From a virus (lineage: Duplodnaviria; Heunggongvirae; Uroviricota; Caudoviricetes): a stretch of DNA of 64,000 nucleotides. Below the pieces are notes generated by a model that was given only the letters and a program-made list of their open reading frames with translations, searched no databases and was not told where the DNA came from. How positions within the stretch are numbered: position 1 is the first letter of the stretch; the number at the start of each line of letters is the position of its first letter. Shown one piece after another: positions 1,443-27,887 of this stretch. The position numbers and the translations under genes are program-made. The stretch lies in IMG/VR virus record IMGVR_UViG_2703718775_000013; one strand, written 5' to 3'.

Positions 1443-2270
1443 TTATTTCACCGGAACAAACGGAACAGCGGTATTACTGGTCATATACTGCGGTAATGTA
1501 CCGTTCCATTTGTTGATCGCTTCCAAGTCCATAACACCGGGGTTCTGGCGCAGAGCTTCACCACGTAAACGAATGGCATCAGCTTCGGCCTGGGCTTTTG
1601 TGCGAATAGCATCAGCCTGTCCGGCAGCTTCCGCGCGCAGCATGTTGGCCTCTGCTTCACGTTGTTTGACCTCTTGCTCGCGTTGCAGGGTTTTTTGGTT
1701 TGCCGTGACTTTGGCGTTAATACTGTCAATAACTGTTGGCGGGTATTCTGGCTTACCTACATAAGAGAGGCTCATCACCTGAATGCCGATTGGCGTCATT
1801 TCTTCCTGAATGTCTTTAAGGGCTGCATCAAGCAATTCAGATTTGCCACCGTCGATAAATTTGTCGGTGGTCATTTTGCTGGCTAATCGGTTCAGAGCAT
1901 CTGCAACCTTCTGGCGTAGATCGGTATCAGTAATATCATCTACACCTTTGCGATAGGTCTGAAATACCGTTGTGACTTTTGCTGGATCAACCTTGTAGGC
2001 TACGCCGATGTGGTAACCAATGGTTGTTCCGTCGCTCATCTGGAAGCTGAACGGCTCATCGTATGTCTTCATTTGCTTAAAGGTCGGGAAGATATAAACT
2101 TCAGTATTCAAGCCTGTCCAGTAGCGACCAACGCCAACTACTTCACCGATACCTTTATCATCCCCCAGCTTATTTACTTTGATCCCTACGTTACCTGGCT
2201 CTACCCGATCGCATCCGGTCAGACATAAAGAACCCAAAATAATCGCTGCACTAATCAACGTTTTTTTCAT
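1443..2270 (-). CDS. SPFH/band-7 (prohibitin-like) domain lipoprotein
   Basis: 275-aa ORF; N-terminus MKKTLISAAIILGSLCLTGC has a lipobox (LTGC); C-terminal Ala/Glu/Arg-rich coiled region typical of SPFH proteins. Confidence 0.7.
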   Translation of the reverse strand: MKKTLISAAIILGSLCLTGCDRVEPGNVGIKVNKLGDDKGIGEVVGVGRYWTGLNTEVYIFPTFKQMKTYDEPFSFQMSDGTTIGYHIGVAYKVDPAKVTTVFQTYRKGVDDITDTDLRQKVADALNRLASKMTTDKFIDGGKSELLDAALKDIQEEMTPIGIQVMSLSYVGKPEYPPTVIDSINAKVTANQKTLQREQEVKQREAEANMLRAEAAGQADAIRTKAQAEADAIRLRGEALRQNPGVMDLEAINKWNGTLPQYMTSNTAVPFVPVK

Positions 2271-2487
2271 TAATTAATTTCCTGGTTTTTTCACGAAAAA
2301 AGACTACTGCGAAAGCCGGGTAAATGAGCGCGAGAAGGACTCCCAACAATACAAGTATTGTGCTGTTAGATGAGATCATATTTGGCAAAAGCCAAACATA
2401 CAGAACCAGTGACACAATCAAACAGAGGACGGCATAAATATATAACCGCACCCATAGCGTTCGACATTTGTTCGGATTGTTCTGCAT
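2251..2487 (-). CDS. small membrane protein (two predicted TM helices)
   Basis: 78-aa ORF overlapping the start of the lipoprotein gene by 20 nt (coupled); hydrophobic segments LYIYAVLCLIVSLVLYVWLL and TILVLLGVLLALIYPAFAVVFF. Confidence 0.55.
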   Translation of the reverse strand: MQNNPNKCRTLWVRLYIYAVLCLIVSLVLYVWLLPNMISSNSTILVLLGVLLALIYPAFAVVFFREKTRKLINEKNVD

Positions 2488-2645
2488 CCTCTCACTCCAT
2501 TATTTAACGAATAAAAAAGCTGCGGTGCCGGGTTCCTCCCGGTGTCCTTTGGCTGGTTATCCACCGTGGACGTGGAAACAAGGAGAAATAATGGACAGAT
2601 ATAACCATTTCCCCGCGTGCGCTTAGCCGCATTCACCGCAACGGA

Positions 2646-2705
2646 AAGAGCATTCTTGGTGGACCTGTAGATTGGGATATGAACCCGTTACAGGAGAATG
2701 CTCTT
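2646..2705. repeat. stem-loop element A (10-bp stem AAGAGCATTC/GAATGCTCTT, conserved loop core GTAGATTGGGATATGAACCCGTTAC)
   Basis: Inverted repeat read directly; loop core shared with element B, right arm shared with element C. Confidence 0.6.
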
Positions 2706-2903
2706 ACCTGTTACGTGCTCCGTTTCGTGGAGCTAACGGCGGGTGATCAGACCGCACCAGACTGGACTTATTTCAGCGTTATGCTCATGCCAGAGAATCA
2801 AACTGTGATGGTCGGTGCTGAACTCCGACACAGGGTTGTAGCAAGCCCCGCAAAGCGCGCACTACTGTAGTTGCGGCACATCAGCCTGTGCATTCACCAC
2901 AAT

Positions 2904-2985
2904 GTTGAGAACACTGGTTGTCACGCAGCAACGCAACATTTATTCGTAGATTGGGATATGACCCCGTTACGCCAGTGTTCTCAAC
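2904..2985. repeat. stem-loop element B (14-bp perfect stem GTTGAGAACACTGG/CCAGTGTTCTCAAC, same conserved loop core)
   Basis: Perfect inverted repeat; loop contains GTAGATTGGGATATGACCCCGTTAC, one substitution relative to element A; stem sequence entirely different from A yet still complementary. Confidence 0.6.
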
Positions 2986-3297
2986 GTTGTAGTTGTTATG
3001 CGTATTCTCTTACTAACCGCACACCAATACATTTCCCATCACGTTCATTTGTCTCGAAACGTGAATACTTAAGTTCGCCGTTAATAATCGCTGTTACAAC
3101 CCGTATCCCGTTAAACGCCCACATATTTCGCTCCATTTACACACATTACCAGTCGCCGGTTACGGTTCCGGCCAGGCCTCTTCCTCAACGGGGTGTTCTC
3201 CATACGGACTACCGTTTATTGGTCGTTCCTGCGGTTTATGTTGTGAAGCCAGATGCTTATCTTCTGGTTGCTTCTAAGATCTGCACTTCATCACAAC

Positions 3298-3352
3298 GGT
3301 AAGAGCACTCGATGCATTTAAGCCAGGCCCCATAAGGGAGAATGCTCTTACC
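3298..3352. repeat. stem-loop element C (13-bp stem GGTAAGAGCACTC/GAGAATGCTCTTACC, different loop)
   Basis: Right arm GAGAATGCTCTTACCTGTTA is identical to the right arm of element A (2694-2716); lies 9 nt from the 3' end of tRNA-Thr. Confidence 0.55.
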
Positions 3353-3360
3353 TGTTATGT

Positions 3361-3437
3361 TGGTGCCGATTAACGGGATCGAACCGCTGACCATTCGCTT
3401 ACAAAGCGACTGCTCTACCAACTGAGCTAAATCGGCA
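3361..3437 (-). tRNA. tRNA-Thr (anticodon UGU)
   Basis: Reverse complement TGCCGATTTAGCTCAGTTGGTAGAGCAGTCGCTTTGTAAGCGAATGGTCAGCGGTTCGATCCCGTTAATCGGCACCA; acceptor stem, T-loop GGTTCGATCC, anticodon loop TTTGTAA, encoded CCA. Confidence 0.75.
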
Positions 3438-3440
3438 ATG

Positions 3441-3527
3441 TGGTGGGGAGTGATGGAGTCGAACCACCCGAGTCGCAATGACAGTAGATTTACAGTCTAC
3501 CCCGCTACCCCTACGGACTAACTCCCC
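3441..3527 (-). tRNA. tRNA-Tyr (anticodon GUA), class II with long variable arm
   Basis: Reverse complement GGGGAGTTAGTCCGTAGGGGTAGCGGGGTAGACTGTAAATCTACTGTCATTGCGACTCGGGTGGTTCGACTCCATCACTCCCCACCA; anticodon stem GTAGA/TCTAC with loop CTGTAAA, long variable arm resembling E. coli tRNA-Tyr, 7-bp acceptor stem, CCA. Confidence 0.75.
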
Positions 3528-3532
3528 TAAAG

Positions 3533-3607
3533 TGGCGATGGTGGGTGGATTCGAACTACCGACCAGTTGGTTAACAGCCAACTGCTCTACCGCTGAGCTA
3601 CACCATC
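3533..3607 (-). tRNA. tRNA-Asn (anticodon GUU)
   Basis: Reverse complement GATGGTGTAGCTCAGCGGTAGAGCAGTTGGCTGTTAACCAACTGGTCGGTAGTTCGAATCCACCCACCATCGCCA; anticodon stem GTTGG/CCAAC with loop CTGTTAA, T-loop GGTTCGAATCC. Confidence 0.85.
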
Positions 3608-4272
3608 ACTTGCCGGGTACGTCTCCGGCGAGGGCTTCCACCTCCGTATGCTTTTCGGCGCACCGCGCCCTGGCTGCAATTCGGTAACAGGGGATGCATA
3701 ACCCTGGCTTCCAGCGTGATTAGCGCCTTCAGCATGACGGGATATACCCGTAAATTCGTGGAACTGTACCCAAAGTGCTGTTAAGCACCGCTGTTACGCT
3801 GAAAAGAAAACGCAACAGGAAAGGACGCTGACCAACAGATGGCCCCTTCTCGTTCATCTGGTTAATCACACCAGCGCCCTTACCTGTTGTGCCTCCCCGT
3901 TCCCTAATACACAGACGGGGACACTCTGCGGTCGATTTTTTGACGGGGGACGACTCATACCCCATGGCATCTGGCTTCTTAGGCCGCTACCATCATCAGA
4001 TCATCGTTTGCATTTACTTTAATGGTCAGTTTCTAAACCGCCGCAAAGTCGCTAACCATGACGAAAACCCTGAAAAAAACGCCCACCCGAAGATGGGCAA
4101 ACTGGACGCTCGTAACGCACTTCGGCGTTGCCACTTAGGCGCATGGTCAACCTGGCAACTCGGTGGTTTGTCTGGGAGGACTAGGCCCAGCCATGCTTAC
4201 CGCCGCGCCTGTCGCGGCTAACAGCTAAATCGCTCTATAAATCACGATTCATTGAGGTAATATTACACTAAT

Positions 4273-4289
4273 AAATTTATTAGAGCAAT
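4273..4289. promoter_or_regulatory. C1 repressor operator-like site (perfect match to reverse complement of ATTGCTCTAATAAATTT)
   Basis: AAATTTATTAGAGCAAT read directly; sits at the head of the minus-strand leader/tRNA/ban operon, analogous to the P1 ban-operon operator. Confidence 0.7.
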
Positions 4290-7200
4290 ATACCCAAAAC
4301 GTCATGAGCTACACCTCGAGTGTCCCCCTTACAAGACACAGAACGTCTGGCAAAAAGAGGTTCCACTCTGAAGCCACTGTCATGATAAAGCTCTCTGATG
4401 TTTGGCGCGCCACTGTTAGTAATGAGAACCTTTGCACCTCGACGATGAGCATCCGTCAACAGAGACACCAGGCGTTTTTGCTCTTCAAACTTAAAGTCAT
4501 GACCGGAATAGTTCGTGAATCCCTCTGTATTTGGAAGCGGTTCATACGGCGGATCGCAAAAGATGACATCTCCTTCTCCGGCAGCTTCAATCACCGCTGC
4601 AAAATCACCGCATACAAACTCAGACCGCCCTTCCGCACCGAGGAAGGCTTCCATCTCCTGTAATGGGAAATACGGAGTTTTATACTTCCCATAACCGACA
4701 TTGAACTCACCGGCCTGGTTGTAACGCGTCAATCCGTTAAAACAATGTCGGTTCAGGAACAAAAACGCCGCTGCGCGATGTAAATCATCATAGACTTGTT
4801 TGTTAAACGCATTCCGTACTGCCAGGTATCCTTCCTGTGTGTTGTAGTCCTGGAAGAAACGATGTGCCAGAGTGATAAGTGAATGCGCCTCGCGTTGCAG
4901 AGTCTTGTAAAAGTTAATCAGGTCAGCATTCACATCATTTAGCAGATTTTCCTGGTATCCGGCATTCATGAAGACAGCTCCGCCACCAACGAAAGGTTCA
5001 ATCAGGCGCTTCCCTTCTGGCAAATAGCGAAAGATTTGTTCCAGAACACCAAATTTTCCACCAGCCCATTTGAATATGGACCGTTCGAATTCTGCCGCTG
5101 GTTTAACTTTTCGCTCTTTTGTTTCACTTCCTTCTTTCTGCCGACATACGGCCTTAGTAATCCGATCGCCAATCCAGCGCATTACTGGTATTGCCATACT
5201 ATTGCCGATCGCTTTGTAACGCGGTCCGTCAGCTGCAAGCATTGCGGCCTCTTCTTCGCTTAAATCTGGATAGTGATTGTGCAGATATGCCAGTTCATCT
5301 GAATTAACTTTTTTACGCTTTTCCGTAGGGATCAACGTATGCCAATCAGGAAAACCTTGCAGCCTTTCACATTCGACAGGGGTAAGACGGCGCATTCTAC
5401 CGTCGCCGAGCAATACAATTGGTGCTTCATGGTTACATGTCAAAGTTGGTGCCGAATTATCGGTTTTTATCTCAGCCCCTCCTTGCCCATGTGCCATGGC
5501 AATTATGTTTGTATCATCGCAAGTTCTGATAGCGATGTTTGAAGTATATCTGGTAGTTTCCTTCCCCTCGCCTCTGCTCGGCGCAATATTCCGGCGCACG
5601 CCTTCGAACTCAAAAAGTACCGTTGCGGGATCGAGATCTGTTCGAGCACTTGCGACAACAAACACGCGTCGGCGTCGTTGTGCCACTCCGAAGTATTGGG
5701 CATCAAGGATTCTCCAGGCCACTTTTCGCTGCGGTCCATAAATACAACCACACTGCGGCCACTTTGGAACATGGCAACCGGTTTTGCCATCCCACCGCCA
5801 GAACGCGTTGCTTTTTCCTGATTCAGGTCGATCACCTGGTTCAAATGGCACATCTTCTCCAGCCAATCCGGCAAGGAAACATCCGAAGGCGTTATCTGCC
5901 GATGACAAGACTCCTGGGACATTTTCCCAGACGATAACGGCTGGTTTGAGAAATGACTCAGCCCGTTTGTCGTCAATTGCATTTGCAAGCTCCACATACT
6001 TTAAAGTTAGCGCGCCACGCTCATCATCAAGCCCACCACGTAATCCCGCGATACTGAATGCCTGACAGTTATGGACCACCGCACCATTGAGGATATAGGA
6101 ATGATCACCTTCGACTTCTATGTTGTATACAGTATCTAGGCCTACCGATTTAAACTCTTTGACTGTTCGTAAAAGCATTCCATGAGCCAATCTTGATTTA
6201 CGTGACAATTTCTGCGGGCAGATTGTTACCTGATAATAATTCCGTTGATTTACCACGCGATCCTCGATCACTTTTTTGGGCTCAACTTCAATAAAGCTGA
6301 CCGAAGAAACATAACCACAAGTCTGTGACAACCCCGCAACGCCCCAAGCAAGCGCAGAACTAACACTATTAATTCTAAATCCCGCTTTACCACTTGGTGT
6401 CCCATCAGTATCAAGATAGCCTTGTAAAAACACATGACGCAATGGATGCGACATCACCCATGCAGGGATACGCTTAGCATGGCTTAACTCGCCAAAATGT
6501 TCATTAAGCCAATTGGCATAACACGTATCATTCAAGGTTACTTTGATGCTCCCTCGGATTTCGCTTGCCACGGAAAATATGTTTTCTGGTATGCGGCAAT
6601 GAAACTTTCTCAATTTCTGGCAATTTATGCCAAAAACAACCGCCTTCTTAGATTTACCTCTCCATCTCCTAATATATCCATCGCCAACATAAGCGCCCGC
6701 AAGATACATAGCCTGTTCTTCAGACAAGAACCGAGAACAAATATCTGGAAATGCAATATTGAAATTAGTTAGAGCGCACCATTGATATCCCGGCATATCA
6801 CATGCTGCTCGCCATTCCGGTTCAGACAACAACTCTCTCTTAAAATATGTGCCATTTTTCCGGGTGTTTTGGGCTTTCCACCGAACAGCCAGGAAGGGAT
6901 GGTCATTGGTTGTTCTTATACCTAAAGGCTGCCCAACGGCATTAAGTAACCCCGTATTAGCTATTTTTGAACCAACTCTTTTTACTTGTTGTAACCGCCC
7001 GAGATGACTGACTACGTAATCACCAGGGCAAACATTTTCTATTGGTTTATAGCCATTTTTACAAAGAACCATATGCCCCGCGGTAAAACATGGTGTTCCC
7101 CCGACGAGCACGTCAGGGGATTCGATTTCCCCAGCCAAGACTTTTTTGGCAAGTTTTTTCATGTCGCCAAGGTTGGCAACATGGGGCCAGCGGAGCGCAA

Positions 7201-26019: not shown

Positions 26020-26039
26020 AGTTACGGCCTCGTAAGTTG

Positions 26040-26300
26040 ATAAACAACCTGCGACCCGCTGCTAAACAGGTGGCAGGACGTGACGGGGTTAGCAGACTGG
26101 CACTTACGAAACCAGCAGGCCGAAGCCTCCCCATCACGCCCCACCATAATTCGGGCGTAACGTGGTTTACGGACACAAAAATACCGCAATATCGGAAATC
26201 TGCGGTTGTCCGCGTAAGTATTCAGGCTGCTAAACCCGGTCGCAGAATTTGCTACGACGGCGGAACTATAAGCCTGAACGATTAAAAGGTCAATATGATG
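26040..26300 (-). ncRNA. c4-like antisense RNA region of immI (boundaries approximate)
   Basis: Leader between the operator and icd contains CTGCTAAAC twice (26059, 26226) and the complementary GTTAGCAG (26089) on the same transcript, the kind of antisense/target pairs described for P1 c4. Confidence 0.3.
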
Positions 26301-26331
26301 CGAAAAGATAGCATTCGCGACTTAAAAATAC

Positions 26332-26348
26332 AAATTTATTAGAGCATT
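26332..26348. promoter_or_regulatory. C1 operator-like site at immI promoter (16/17 match)
   Basis: AAATTTATTAGAGCATT at the upstream end of the minus-strand immI leader. Confidence 0.65.
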
Positions 26349-26444
26349 GCTTGTTTAATAAATGCACAATTGGATCTAATAACCTCTTTTTTTTAAAGGC
26401 GAAAATATGTACCCTAAATGAGTTATAAGGCAGGTGAGGTTATA

Positions 26445-26576
26445 ATGAGAAAACTATTACTACCGTTATTATTTATGGCCGGGACTGTTAATGCAGCATC
26501 AAGCGTGAAGGAGATTTGTACCGATTATACGAAATACCTTGGGCACGTTTACGCCTTTGCGATCAATGACTATTAA
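26445..26576 (+). CDS. small secreted peptide precursor (43 aa, signal peptide, about 23-aa mature product)
   Basis: ATG at 26445 with GGTGAGG SD; MRKLLLPLLFMAGTVNA-ASSVKEICTDYTKYLGHVYAFAINDY; not in ORF track (below 60 aa). Confidence 0.45.
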   Translation: MRKLLLPLLFMAGTVNAASSVKEICTDYTKYLGHVYAFAINDY

Positions 26577-26597
26577 TCCATGCGTAGGAGTGGATTT

Positions 26598-26915
26598 ATG
26601 CTGATTCGTTTGTTTTTAGTGCTTTCCTTTTTAACATTTAATGTTTTTGCTGATGAAGTTGACTTTTCGAAGGTAGATTGCAATTCAGTGGAAACAAGAA
26701 AAGCTCTTATTGAAGAATATAACGAAATATTATCGTTATATGGAATAACAGTGGTTGATTCTTATAATCAAAAAACTATTCAGAAAGGAATAAATAAACT
26801 GGTTTGTTATGGGATTTACCAATATTCAGATGGCTCTTCGGAGTATGTTATTTATAAAGCATACCCAAATAGTCTTGGTGAATTGATTAGTGAGTTTAAA
26901 CCGATTAATGAGTGA
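26598..26915 (+). CDS. secreted hypothetical protein (signal peptide, two Cys)
   Basis: ATG at 26598 with AGGAG SD; MLIRLFLVLSFLTFNVFA-DEV...; GC about 30 percent. Confidence 0.6.
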   Translation: MLIRLFLVLSFLTFNVFADEVDFSKVDCNSVETRKALIEEYNEILSLYGITVVDSYNQKTIQKGINKLVCYGIYQYSDGSSEYVIYKAYPNSLGELISEFKPINE

Positions 26916-26922
26916 ATGGAAA

Positions 26923-27702
26923 ATGAAATTATTTAATGTAATAACATTTTGTTGTGCTATTTTTGCTGGAAGCGCGATAGCTGATAATAAATTGCCAGAT
27001 TGGCTTTCTACTTCAAAAAAAGATTATGATTTAGTAAGGGTGTTCTATTTGTCTGGATTTGCCTCGAAAGCAATGAATAATCAATTTGGTTATCATTTTC
27101 CATCTGAGTTGGTTAATGATTTTAAAGATAATGAATTTGCCGCTCAGGAAAAATGGAATAAAATTTCAATTGTATATGGTGAAATAAAATCCATAAGAAT
27201 GGTGAATAATGAACCAATTGTAGAGTTATTTACTCCAGGGGAAAATGCAACGCCACTAAATTATATCAAATTGAAAGTGTTGGATTCAAAACAAAACTCT
27301 CTGTTAAAACTAAAAAAAGGGGATGATATATATGCAGTGTGCTCCGGTGCTAATTTTAGTTTAGTGCCAATTCTGAGCAACTGCACTCCAGCAACTGACG
27401 TCATTGATGCTGCACTCTCTTTTTCTGGTGAATATATGTTCCCTGCTTTTGATTCTTTTTCACCTACTAAGCAAAACGTCAAATATATATTCACAAATCA
27501 AGATCCTGTTCAGATGATGAATTTTATAGGGTACCTATCCTTAGTCGATACAACGAAGGATAAGAATAAAATGGATATGGTTCGTAAGTGTACGCCTTGG
27601 AAGCCGGAATGTTCACAACAATTCGTTGATGTAATGGAAGGATTTGATAACATCATGTATAAATATGAGAGGGAATTTAAAAATTACATAGAATTAAAAT
27701 AG
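26923..27702 (+). CDS. secreted hypothetical protein (signal peptide), candidate superinfection-exclusion-type function
   Basis: MKLFNVITFCCAIFAGSAIA-DNK...; 259 aa; AT-rich; followed by terminator. Confidence 0.6.
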   Translation: MKLFNVITFCCAIFAGSAIADNKLPDWLSTSKKDYDLVRVFYLSGFASKAMNNQFGYHFPSELVNDFKDNEFAAQEKWNKISIVYGEIKSIRMVNNEPIVELFTPGENATPLNYIKLKVLDSKQNSLLKLKKGDDIYAVCSGANFSLVPILSNCTPATDVIDAALSFSGEYMFPAFDSFSPTKQNVKYIFTNQDPVQMMNFIGYLSLVDTTKDKNKMDMVRKCTPWKPECSQQFVDVMEGFDNIMYKYEREFKNYIELK

Positions 27703-27735
27703 TATTTGAAATGATAGTCAATTTAAGTTTTAACA

Positions 27736-27766
27736 AAACGCCCATTAAAGGGCGTTTTATTGTTTT
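27736..27766 (+). terminator. rho-independent terminator
   Basis: AAACGCCCATTAAAGGGCGTTT hairpin then T-rich tract. Confidence 0.7.
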
Positions 27767-27887
27767 ACTCAAAACAATCTGATTATGTGATAACCATATC
27801 ATATTCCTCATTCCACCTACACTGATTACCCCCCAGACAACAACATTCCTACTCAATGAACAAATGACTACTCGTAGAATCGGTTAA

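Follow-up and report, generated by a model that had tools for sequence, protein, structure and literature searches.

The low-GC island at positions 26380-27770 of the window (the whole 64,000-nucleotide stretch analysed here, from a Caudoviricetes virus, IMG/VR record IMGVR_UViG_2703718775_000013) is an operon that has been described before, the "superimmunity" operon simA-simB-simC of phage P1, and has P1's own arrangement. When positions 26300-27800 were compared with phage records by megablast, they were 97.5% identical to P1 over 1501 of 1501 nucleotides; a three-way alignment is free of gaps between the window and P1 across the sim island, and collinearity with P1 extends, at 97.4% identity, through the surrounding 24 kb. 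The P1 record (NC_005856) annotates simA, simB, and simC (P1_gp041-043), PsimA, Oc4, c4, and pmgC in the order and on the strands seen in the window, with simABC divergent from c4, Oc4 (Op51) in between, and LPsit with the late tail operon pmgC-tub-pmgB-sit downstream. SimA, SimB, and SimC are 100%, 98.1%, and 96.5% identical to their P1 counterparts at the amino acid level over their full lengths, and none of the three frames contains a frameshift or premature stop relative to P1. At the level of DNA and reading frames, the defining features of the P1 operon were all found; genes, order, orientation, and neighbours are all shared. Taken as a whole, we consider the island, with a probability of about 0.9, to be the simABC operon of a P1-like phage-plasmid, in which SimC has an exclusion role and simA is a remnant. 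The sim operon has reportedly been part of the P1 genome annotation since 2004, and its main gene was characterised in 1989-1990.

A preliminary description of this DNA, made from its letters alone, had seen here a periplasm-targeted, exclusion-type module beside immI and had pointed to P1 Sim, rightly in both respects; the three consecutive plus-strand genes of 43, 105, and 259 amino acids that it placed divergent from the immI operator are indeed there. It erred in supposing that orientation and gene number differ from those of P1 sim, since P1 too has three genes that diverge from c4. On this supposition the island could have been a module separate from P1 sim and directed to the periplasm, providing a new exclusion, receptor-masking, or toxin/immunity function and merely lying near immI. 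Family searches taken by themselves would encourage such a reading: no Pfam, NCBIfam, PADLOC, or PDB-sequence family lends the proteins a name, and RefSeq PGAP labels them "hypothetical protein", so that without the DNA comparison the Sim proteins look uncharacterised. The PADLOC-DB 2.0 defence HMMs gave no family at E<=1 for SimA, SimB, SimC, or the two Ro157c2 proteins that occupy the same slot (described below), and NCBIfam and PDB-sequence searches with the Sim proteins returned nothing meaningful. The idea of a distinct module is, however, refuted by the 97.5% identity and full collinearity with P1 simABC and by the matching number, order, and orientation of the genes; these make the island P1 sim itself and leave the alternative scarcely credible.

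The low GC content that had also been pointed out is borne out by measurement: positions 26380-27770 have 32.7% GC, falling locally to 29%, whereas the window has 47.4%. The complete island is present in 7 phage records and in 137 PLSDB plasmids (from Escherichia, Salmonella, and E. albertii), and simABC is one of eight variable, low-GC regions in a comparison of P1-like phage-plasmids (PMC9603915). On its left, the island is separated from c4-icd-ant by a C1 repressor operator on the minus strand (26332-26348, Op51, the Oc4 of P1), which reads AATGCTCTAATAAATTT and has one mismatch to the consensus; the window contains 8 such operator-like sites against 0.32 expected. Within immI on the minus strand, Rfam models recognise the C4 RNA (26066-26151) and the a1b1 targets of this RNA (26219-26271), with icd and ant1 beyond, and the c4 specificity of this adjacent immI region in the window differs from that of P1. 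On its right, the plus-strand operon ends, as the preliminary description proposed, at an intrinsic terminator-like hairpin and T-run (27735-27768), beyond which come the late promoter LPsit and then pmgC. The hairpin (27735-27758) has a 6-nt loop on a 9-bp stem, of which 5 pairs are GC, and is followed by ATTGTTTTAC. It folds as RNA at -17.1 kcal/mol (z -3.4) and is kept in P1 and in phage 813R1; as the terminator scan found 1 site against 0.7 expected, the support comes from position, conservation, and fold z-score. The PsimA promoter predicted in P1 was not recovered by a consensus promoter scan at its threshold, and that scan gave 8 promoter-like sites in all against 8.4 expected.

All three reading frames have an in-frame ATG or GTG upstream of the start adopted here, which would extend the products to 52, 111, and 264 or 270 amino acids. 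The plus-strand coordinates of the shorter forms are 26445-26576 for simA (43 amino acids; annotated in P1 from the ATG at 26418, 52 amino acids), 26598-26915 for simB (105 amino acids; in P1 from 26580, 111 amino acids), and 26923-27702 for simC, also called sim (259 amino acids; in P1 from 26908, 264 amino acids). The shorter starts are better supported by the sequence than those annotated in P1, because Shine-Dalgarno motifs precede them (GGTGAGG 5 nt before 26445 and AGGAG 7 nt before 26598), because all of the homologues found begin at a methionine matching the shorter forms, and because RefSeq PGAP calls the 105- and 259-amino acid forms. PGAP leaves simA uncalled; its absence from the list of open reading frames, which the preliminary description had remarked on, simply follows from a length below 60 amino acids.

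Each product has the N-terminus of a predicted signal peptide, in agreement with what had been claimed. As judged with a simple sequence-feature script rather than a trained predictor, SimA, SimB, and SimC have a basic N-terminus and a 9-residue hydrophobic core with mean Kyte-Doolittle values of 2.66-2.77, followed by AXA-type cleavage motifs (VNA|AS, VFA|DE, and AIA|DN, respectively). The SimC signal peptide, with K2, a hydrophobic core at residues 6-14, and AIA|DN at 20/21, appears to be of the SPase-I type. A lipobox of the form [LVI][ASTVI][GAS]C, looked for by eye at the ends of the three signal peptides, is absent: Cys10 and Cys11 of SimC are preceded by ITF and TFC, and the signal peptides of SimA and SimB have no cysteine. 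Past residue 30, none of the three proteins has a transmembrane-like segment (mean hydropathy above 1.6 in 19-residue windows).

The smallest of the genes, simA, is by comparison of sequences a truncated 5' remnant of a gene for an exported protein of 179-215 amino acids. SimA matches phrog_3933 only within positions 1-41 of 213. In the equivalent slot, phage Ro157c2YLVW encodes a 215-amino acid exported protein whose first 36 residues are identical to SimA (93% identity over 41 amino acids), and two more distant P1-like plasmids, L005 and L007, carry a full-length simA of 179 amino acids that is 69% identical to SimA over 42 residues and is followed by simB-like and simC-like genes. At a third locus (L057) a full-length simA of 212/221 amino acids is followed directly by a simC-like gene without simB. 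DNA homology to the full-length genes runs past the simA stop to about 26590 (approximately codon 48), just before the start of simB, and where simA ends in TAA, the full-length genes have GAA or GAG; what was once Met46 of simA serves, in the same frame, as the start of the long simB ORF in the P1 annotation. SimA retains one of the two cysteines that are conserved in the full-length protein. The 215-amino acid protein has a borderline Pfam match to PTPlike_phytase, at 26.6 bits with a cut-off of 27, on which we place no weight.

The preliminary description had offered a peptide toxin/immunity pair as one possibility, and the mature product of about 23 amino acids could in principle be a functional secreted peptide of about 23-26 residues, for example in signalling, as a toxin, or together with SimB or SimC, rather than the product of a decayed gene. 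The window, P1, and all 9 P1-type islands sampled from IMG/VR (each with the truncated simA) have an undamaged ORF, a strong Shine-Dalgarno motif, and the signal peptide; simA in the window differs from that of P1 by two synonymous and no non-synonymous changes; and the P1 record labels both SimA and SimB "putative superimmunity accessory function". Yet these copies are too little diverged to reveal purifying selection, PGAP does not call the gene, half of the conserved cysteine pair is gone, and the mature part is merely the first 23-26 residues of a bigger domain, to which the homology is codon for codon at the N-terminus of proteins of 179-221 amino acids. Because homology to the full-length genes continues beyond the stop, the short product is most simply explained as that of a decapitated gene, and we regard a functional peptide as quite improbable. 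The simA remnant in P1 and in the window is thus probably non-functional, judging from its sequence, and its 43-amino acid product is probably not a peptide toxin; some residual role is nevertheless conceivable, given that every copy seen keeps the short ORF whole and that its ribosome-binding site is strong.

SimB is a second predicted exported protein, probably with an accessory role. It matches phrog_14329 (E 5.9e-70), has the features of an exported protein with two conserved cysteines, and differs from its P1 counterpart by 2 substitutions. Homologues with 59-61% identity occupy the equivalent position in L005 and L007, and simB is missing from the L057 locus, which retains its simC-like gene. 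No Pfam, NCBIfam, or PADLOC family matches SimB, and a word-indexed search found just 12 clusters of homologues. We also considered SimB as a paralogue of SimC, which was rejected (hhalign probability 0.2%).

Profile match and structural model together show the core of SimC as a predicted OB fold of the PF12869 "tRNA_anti-like" type. SimC, which differs from the P1 protein by 9 substitutions, can be divided into the signal peptide (1-20), a helical linker, the OB fold (approximately 60-156), and a helical C-terminal domain (157-259). Residues 62-154 match model positions 52-144 of 146 of PF12869 at 23.2 bits (gathering cut-off 23.5; E 5.5e-5), and five of the eight sequences in alignment A3, SimC included, match this family at E<=0.01, the best at E 1.1e-18; Pfam gives no other match to SimC at E<=1. 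The structural model of SimC, computed with an eight-sequence alignment (mean pLDDT 68; the other four models were poor), contains a five-stranded OB barrel that can be superposed on the solved structure of PF12869, and is closest in BFVD to phage proteins of the tRNA_anti-like kind, along with one entry annotated "Host cell surface-exposed lipoprotein". Single-sequence AlphaFold gave an unusable model of SimC (pLDDT 33). No relatives of the C-terminal helical domain were detectable. Cys140/154 and Cys223/230 are kept in those SimC relatives that reach these columns, and such conserved pairs fit disulfides in an oxidising periplasm. The family is small: among 1.84 billion representatives scanned exhaustively with HMMER, 14 matched at E<1e-3, and a word-indexed search found just 4 clusters. 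With so few homologues, the alignments of both SimC and SimB are shallow and a deep profile is impossible.

The PF12869 family is represented in the PDB by 3f1z, a putative nucleic-acid-binding lipoprotein of Klebsiella pneumoniae, the family name itself being a prediction. SimC differs from proteins of the 3f1z type in having an SPase-I-type signal peptide without a lipobox, and its N-terminal helical linker and helical C-terminal domain of about 100 residues have no counterpart there.

The sim genes of related elements diverge unevenly. Between the window and L005/L007, PmgC, Tub, and PmgB are 70-82% identical and SimB 59-61%, but SimC is only 39-47% identical. The contrast is sharper between L005 and L007 themselves, in which SimA is 98%, SimB 93.5%, PmgC, Tub, and PmgB 99%, and the N-terminus of Sit 96% identical, whereas SimC is 49% identical, with DNA homology lost from approximately codon 104 of simC to just beyond its stop. 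In these alignments, the pattern is that left when alleles of a specificity determinant are replaced. The position between Op51 and pmgC is itself, as far as gene content tells, a swap site for differing cassettes of exported or envelope proteins. P7 has in this slot a lipoprotein and a DUF5384 protein, a cassette that is found in 167 PLSDB records (P7 Upf50.5 matches TraT weakly, at 23.1 bits with a cut-off of 31), and the Ro157c2-type cassette consists of a full-length simA and a gene for a 158-amino acid exported protein, found whole in 81 records and in part in 308. All of the slot cassettes are lower in GC than their flanks (36-43% versus 48-49%).

A slot of this kind raises the alternative that the island is AT-rich cargo gained by horizontal transfer and, at prophage copy number, serves mainly some purpose other than exclusion of P1: it might confer another envelope benefit or be largely silent (for example, repressed by H-NS), with exclusion an effect of over-expression. 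The phenotype was reportedly described with multicopy clones, so the strength of Sim exclusion at prophage copy number is uncertain. Consistent with cargo are the GC content of 33% against 47% for the window, the consensus scan that gave no strong promoter match, the unrelated exported or envelope proteins that fill the slot in other P1-like elements (the weakly TraT-like lipoprotein and DUF5384 protein of P7 and the 158-amino acid exported protein), and the dispensability of simA, simB, and simC for plaque formation (PMC10695390). Against it, published work assigns exclusion to sim; the conservation of ORFs and cysteine pairs across SimC-like proteins that are 34-49% identical speaks for a selected function; and the swapping of simC alleles is what one would expect if simC determined specificity in conflict between phages. 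We therefore think it unlikely, though less so than a functional SimA peptide, that cargo of this sort is the better account, and retain the reading of the island as the P1 exclusion operon.

What Sim does has been described in P1. Kliem and Dreiseikelmann reportedly found in 1989 that adsorption is normal in the presence of Sim and that the block is bypassed by transfection, and Maillou and Dreiseikelmann are said to have shown in 1990 that processing of Sim depends on SecA. Two later papers name simC as the superinfection exclusion gene of P1 (PMC2409434; PMC9177967), another states that Sim may stop superinfecting phages from injecting their DNA into the cytoplasm (PMC8546580), and in a fourth Sim is counted among the proteins that prevent translocation of phage DNA (PMC9952470).

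Other phage-encoded proteins act at a similar step but differ from SimC in kind. Ltp of the Streptococcus thermophilus phage TP-J34 is a surface-exposed lipoprotein that blocks DNA injection. Like SimC, as the latter is portrayed in the P1 literature, it is exported and prophage-encoded and imposes an extracytoplasmic block to DNA entry after adsorption, and the BFVD entry named "Host cell surface-exposed lipoprotein" has an OB fold in common with the SimC model. Unlike Ltp, SimC is not a lipoprotein, and Pfam detected in it neither the Ltp repeat domain nor homology to Ltp; its host is Gram-negative, so that its site of action would be the periplasm. The phenotype class that the P1 literature gives for Sim is also shared with T4 Imm, P22 SieA, and HK97 gp15, with which adsorption is normal and DNA is kept from the cytoplasm (PMC9952470; PMC6832061). 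These three are integral inner-membrane proteins, whereas SimC has no hydrophobic segment past its signal peptide, and no homology to them was found.

By analogy with P1, SimC of the window would cross the inner membrane by means of a signal peptide that is then cleaved off, and periplasmic SimC would block superinfecting P1 after adsorption and before its DNA enters the cytoplasm. We infer that the OB fold, the C-terminal domain, or both may bind, in the periplasm, either the incoming DNA itself or some part of the machinery that injects it, and that the fast-diverging 3' two-thirds of simC may determine which phages are excluded; SimB would be an accessory partner that is sometimes absent, and simA in the window would be inert. 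A more specific proposal, which we offer tentatively and think possible rather than probable, is that SimC acts as a periplasmic OB-fold "gatekeeper" whose conserved N-terminal third docks it while the rapidly exchanged OB and C-terminal region recognises the injection apparatus or DNA of certain P1-like phages, with alleles of simC corresponding to exclusion groups.

The operon itself is a rediscovery, and the new details are refinements rather than evidence of a new kind of system: SimC appears to be an exported OB-fold protein, simA of P1 appears to be a gene fragment, and simC appears hypervariable in a swap-prone slot. These refinements offer handles on how a periplasmic protein stops the entry of myovirus DNA, and they bear on whether P1-like phage-plasmids that carry antibiotic resistance form exclusion groups. 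Were the gatekeeper proposal true, simC alleles (in classes of 96%, 83%, 47%, 39%, and 34% identity) would define exclusion groups among P1-like phage-plasmids, and such groups would reassort without being tied to the combinatorial c4 antisense immunity types. Exported OB-fold proteins of the PF12869 type in other prophages would then constitute an unrecognised class of injection blockers.

The c4 specificity of the window's immI, the c4-icd-ant operon that adjoins the superinfection-exclusion (sim) island, is different from both that of P1 and that of P7. The elements of this antisense system lie on the minus strand at 26031-26037, 26102-26108, and 26213-26219, with further elements at 26059-26066, 26089-26095, and 26227-26234. 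Both target sites in the window have the b element ACTTACG, and the C4 antisense RNA carries the complementary CGTAAGT, whereas the corresponding b element and C4 complement are GTTAGTG and CACTAAC in P1 and ATTGTG and CACAATC in P7. The a element is of the P7 type, and the window's Ant1 is 90.6% P1-like versus 99.7% P7-like. In a survey of 131 c4 loci, the majority taken from IMG/VR, we found 16 b'/a' combinations, with b sites of exact complementarity on both flanks in all but three loci (128/131), and the type carried by the window is the second most frequent (18 of the 131). The c4 type assorts freely with the cassette occupying the slot between the C1 operator Op51 and pmgC.

Within the island, the differences between the window and P1 are mostly concentrated in about 290 nt of simC (27012-27300), a stretch whose product comprises the SimC linker together with the N-terminal half of the OB fold, and phage vB_EcoM-813R1 has the same version of this stretch as the window. 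This clustering and the shared version suggest a recombination patch rather than divergence spread evenly. The annotation of vB_EcoM-813R1 divides simC into two CDS (3623-4401 of that locus), because a T-run in the gene (alignment column 1121) is 1 nt shorter than in the window and P1; the missing nucleotide is either a sequencing error or a genuine inactivation.

Full-length SimA corresponds to phrog_3933. The 215-aa homologue of phage vB_EcoM-Ro157c2YLVW (3646-4293 of its locus) has a borderline match to Pfam PTPlike_phytase over residues 24-109 (26.6 bits, cut-off 27), and this match is absent from the 179-aa homologue of the divergent plasmid L005. Ro157c2YLVW is also 100% identical to the window over 401 nt (3300-3700), and its two records are the only ones to cover at least 80% of that stretch, with reference P1 not among them. 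The stretch includes a minus-strand tRNA cluster, Asn(gtt)-Tyr(gta, 87 nt)-Thr(tgt), at 3361-3607; a tRNA-Met/Ile(cat) lies at 1340-1415. The window seems to carry one tRNA-Tyr more than P1.

In two divergent P1-like plasmids with full-length simA, L005 and L006, the sim operon is separated from the icd/c4 region by an inserted IS605-family OrfB/TnpB gene (Pfam OrfB_IS605 and Cas12f1-like_TNB; 2108-3238 in each locus). The immI arrangement of a third, L007, differs from that of P1: a gene with a Phage_pRha domain separates icd from ant, and a PrlF/YhaV toxin-antitoxin pair adjoins ant (regions 1-528 and 1664-2362).

In P7, the Op51-pmgC slot (4331-5395 of the P7 locus) holds genes for Upf50.5, a lipoprotein of the outer membrane, and for a protein with a DUF5384 match (E = 3e-43). 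Upf50.5 has a glycine-zipper match and a weak, sub-threshold match to TraT (23.1 bits against 31). Since TraT is a surface-exclusion lipoprotein, this similarity hints that the P7 cassette may likewise be related to the envelope or to exclusion.
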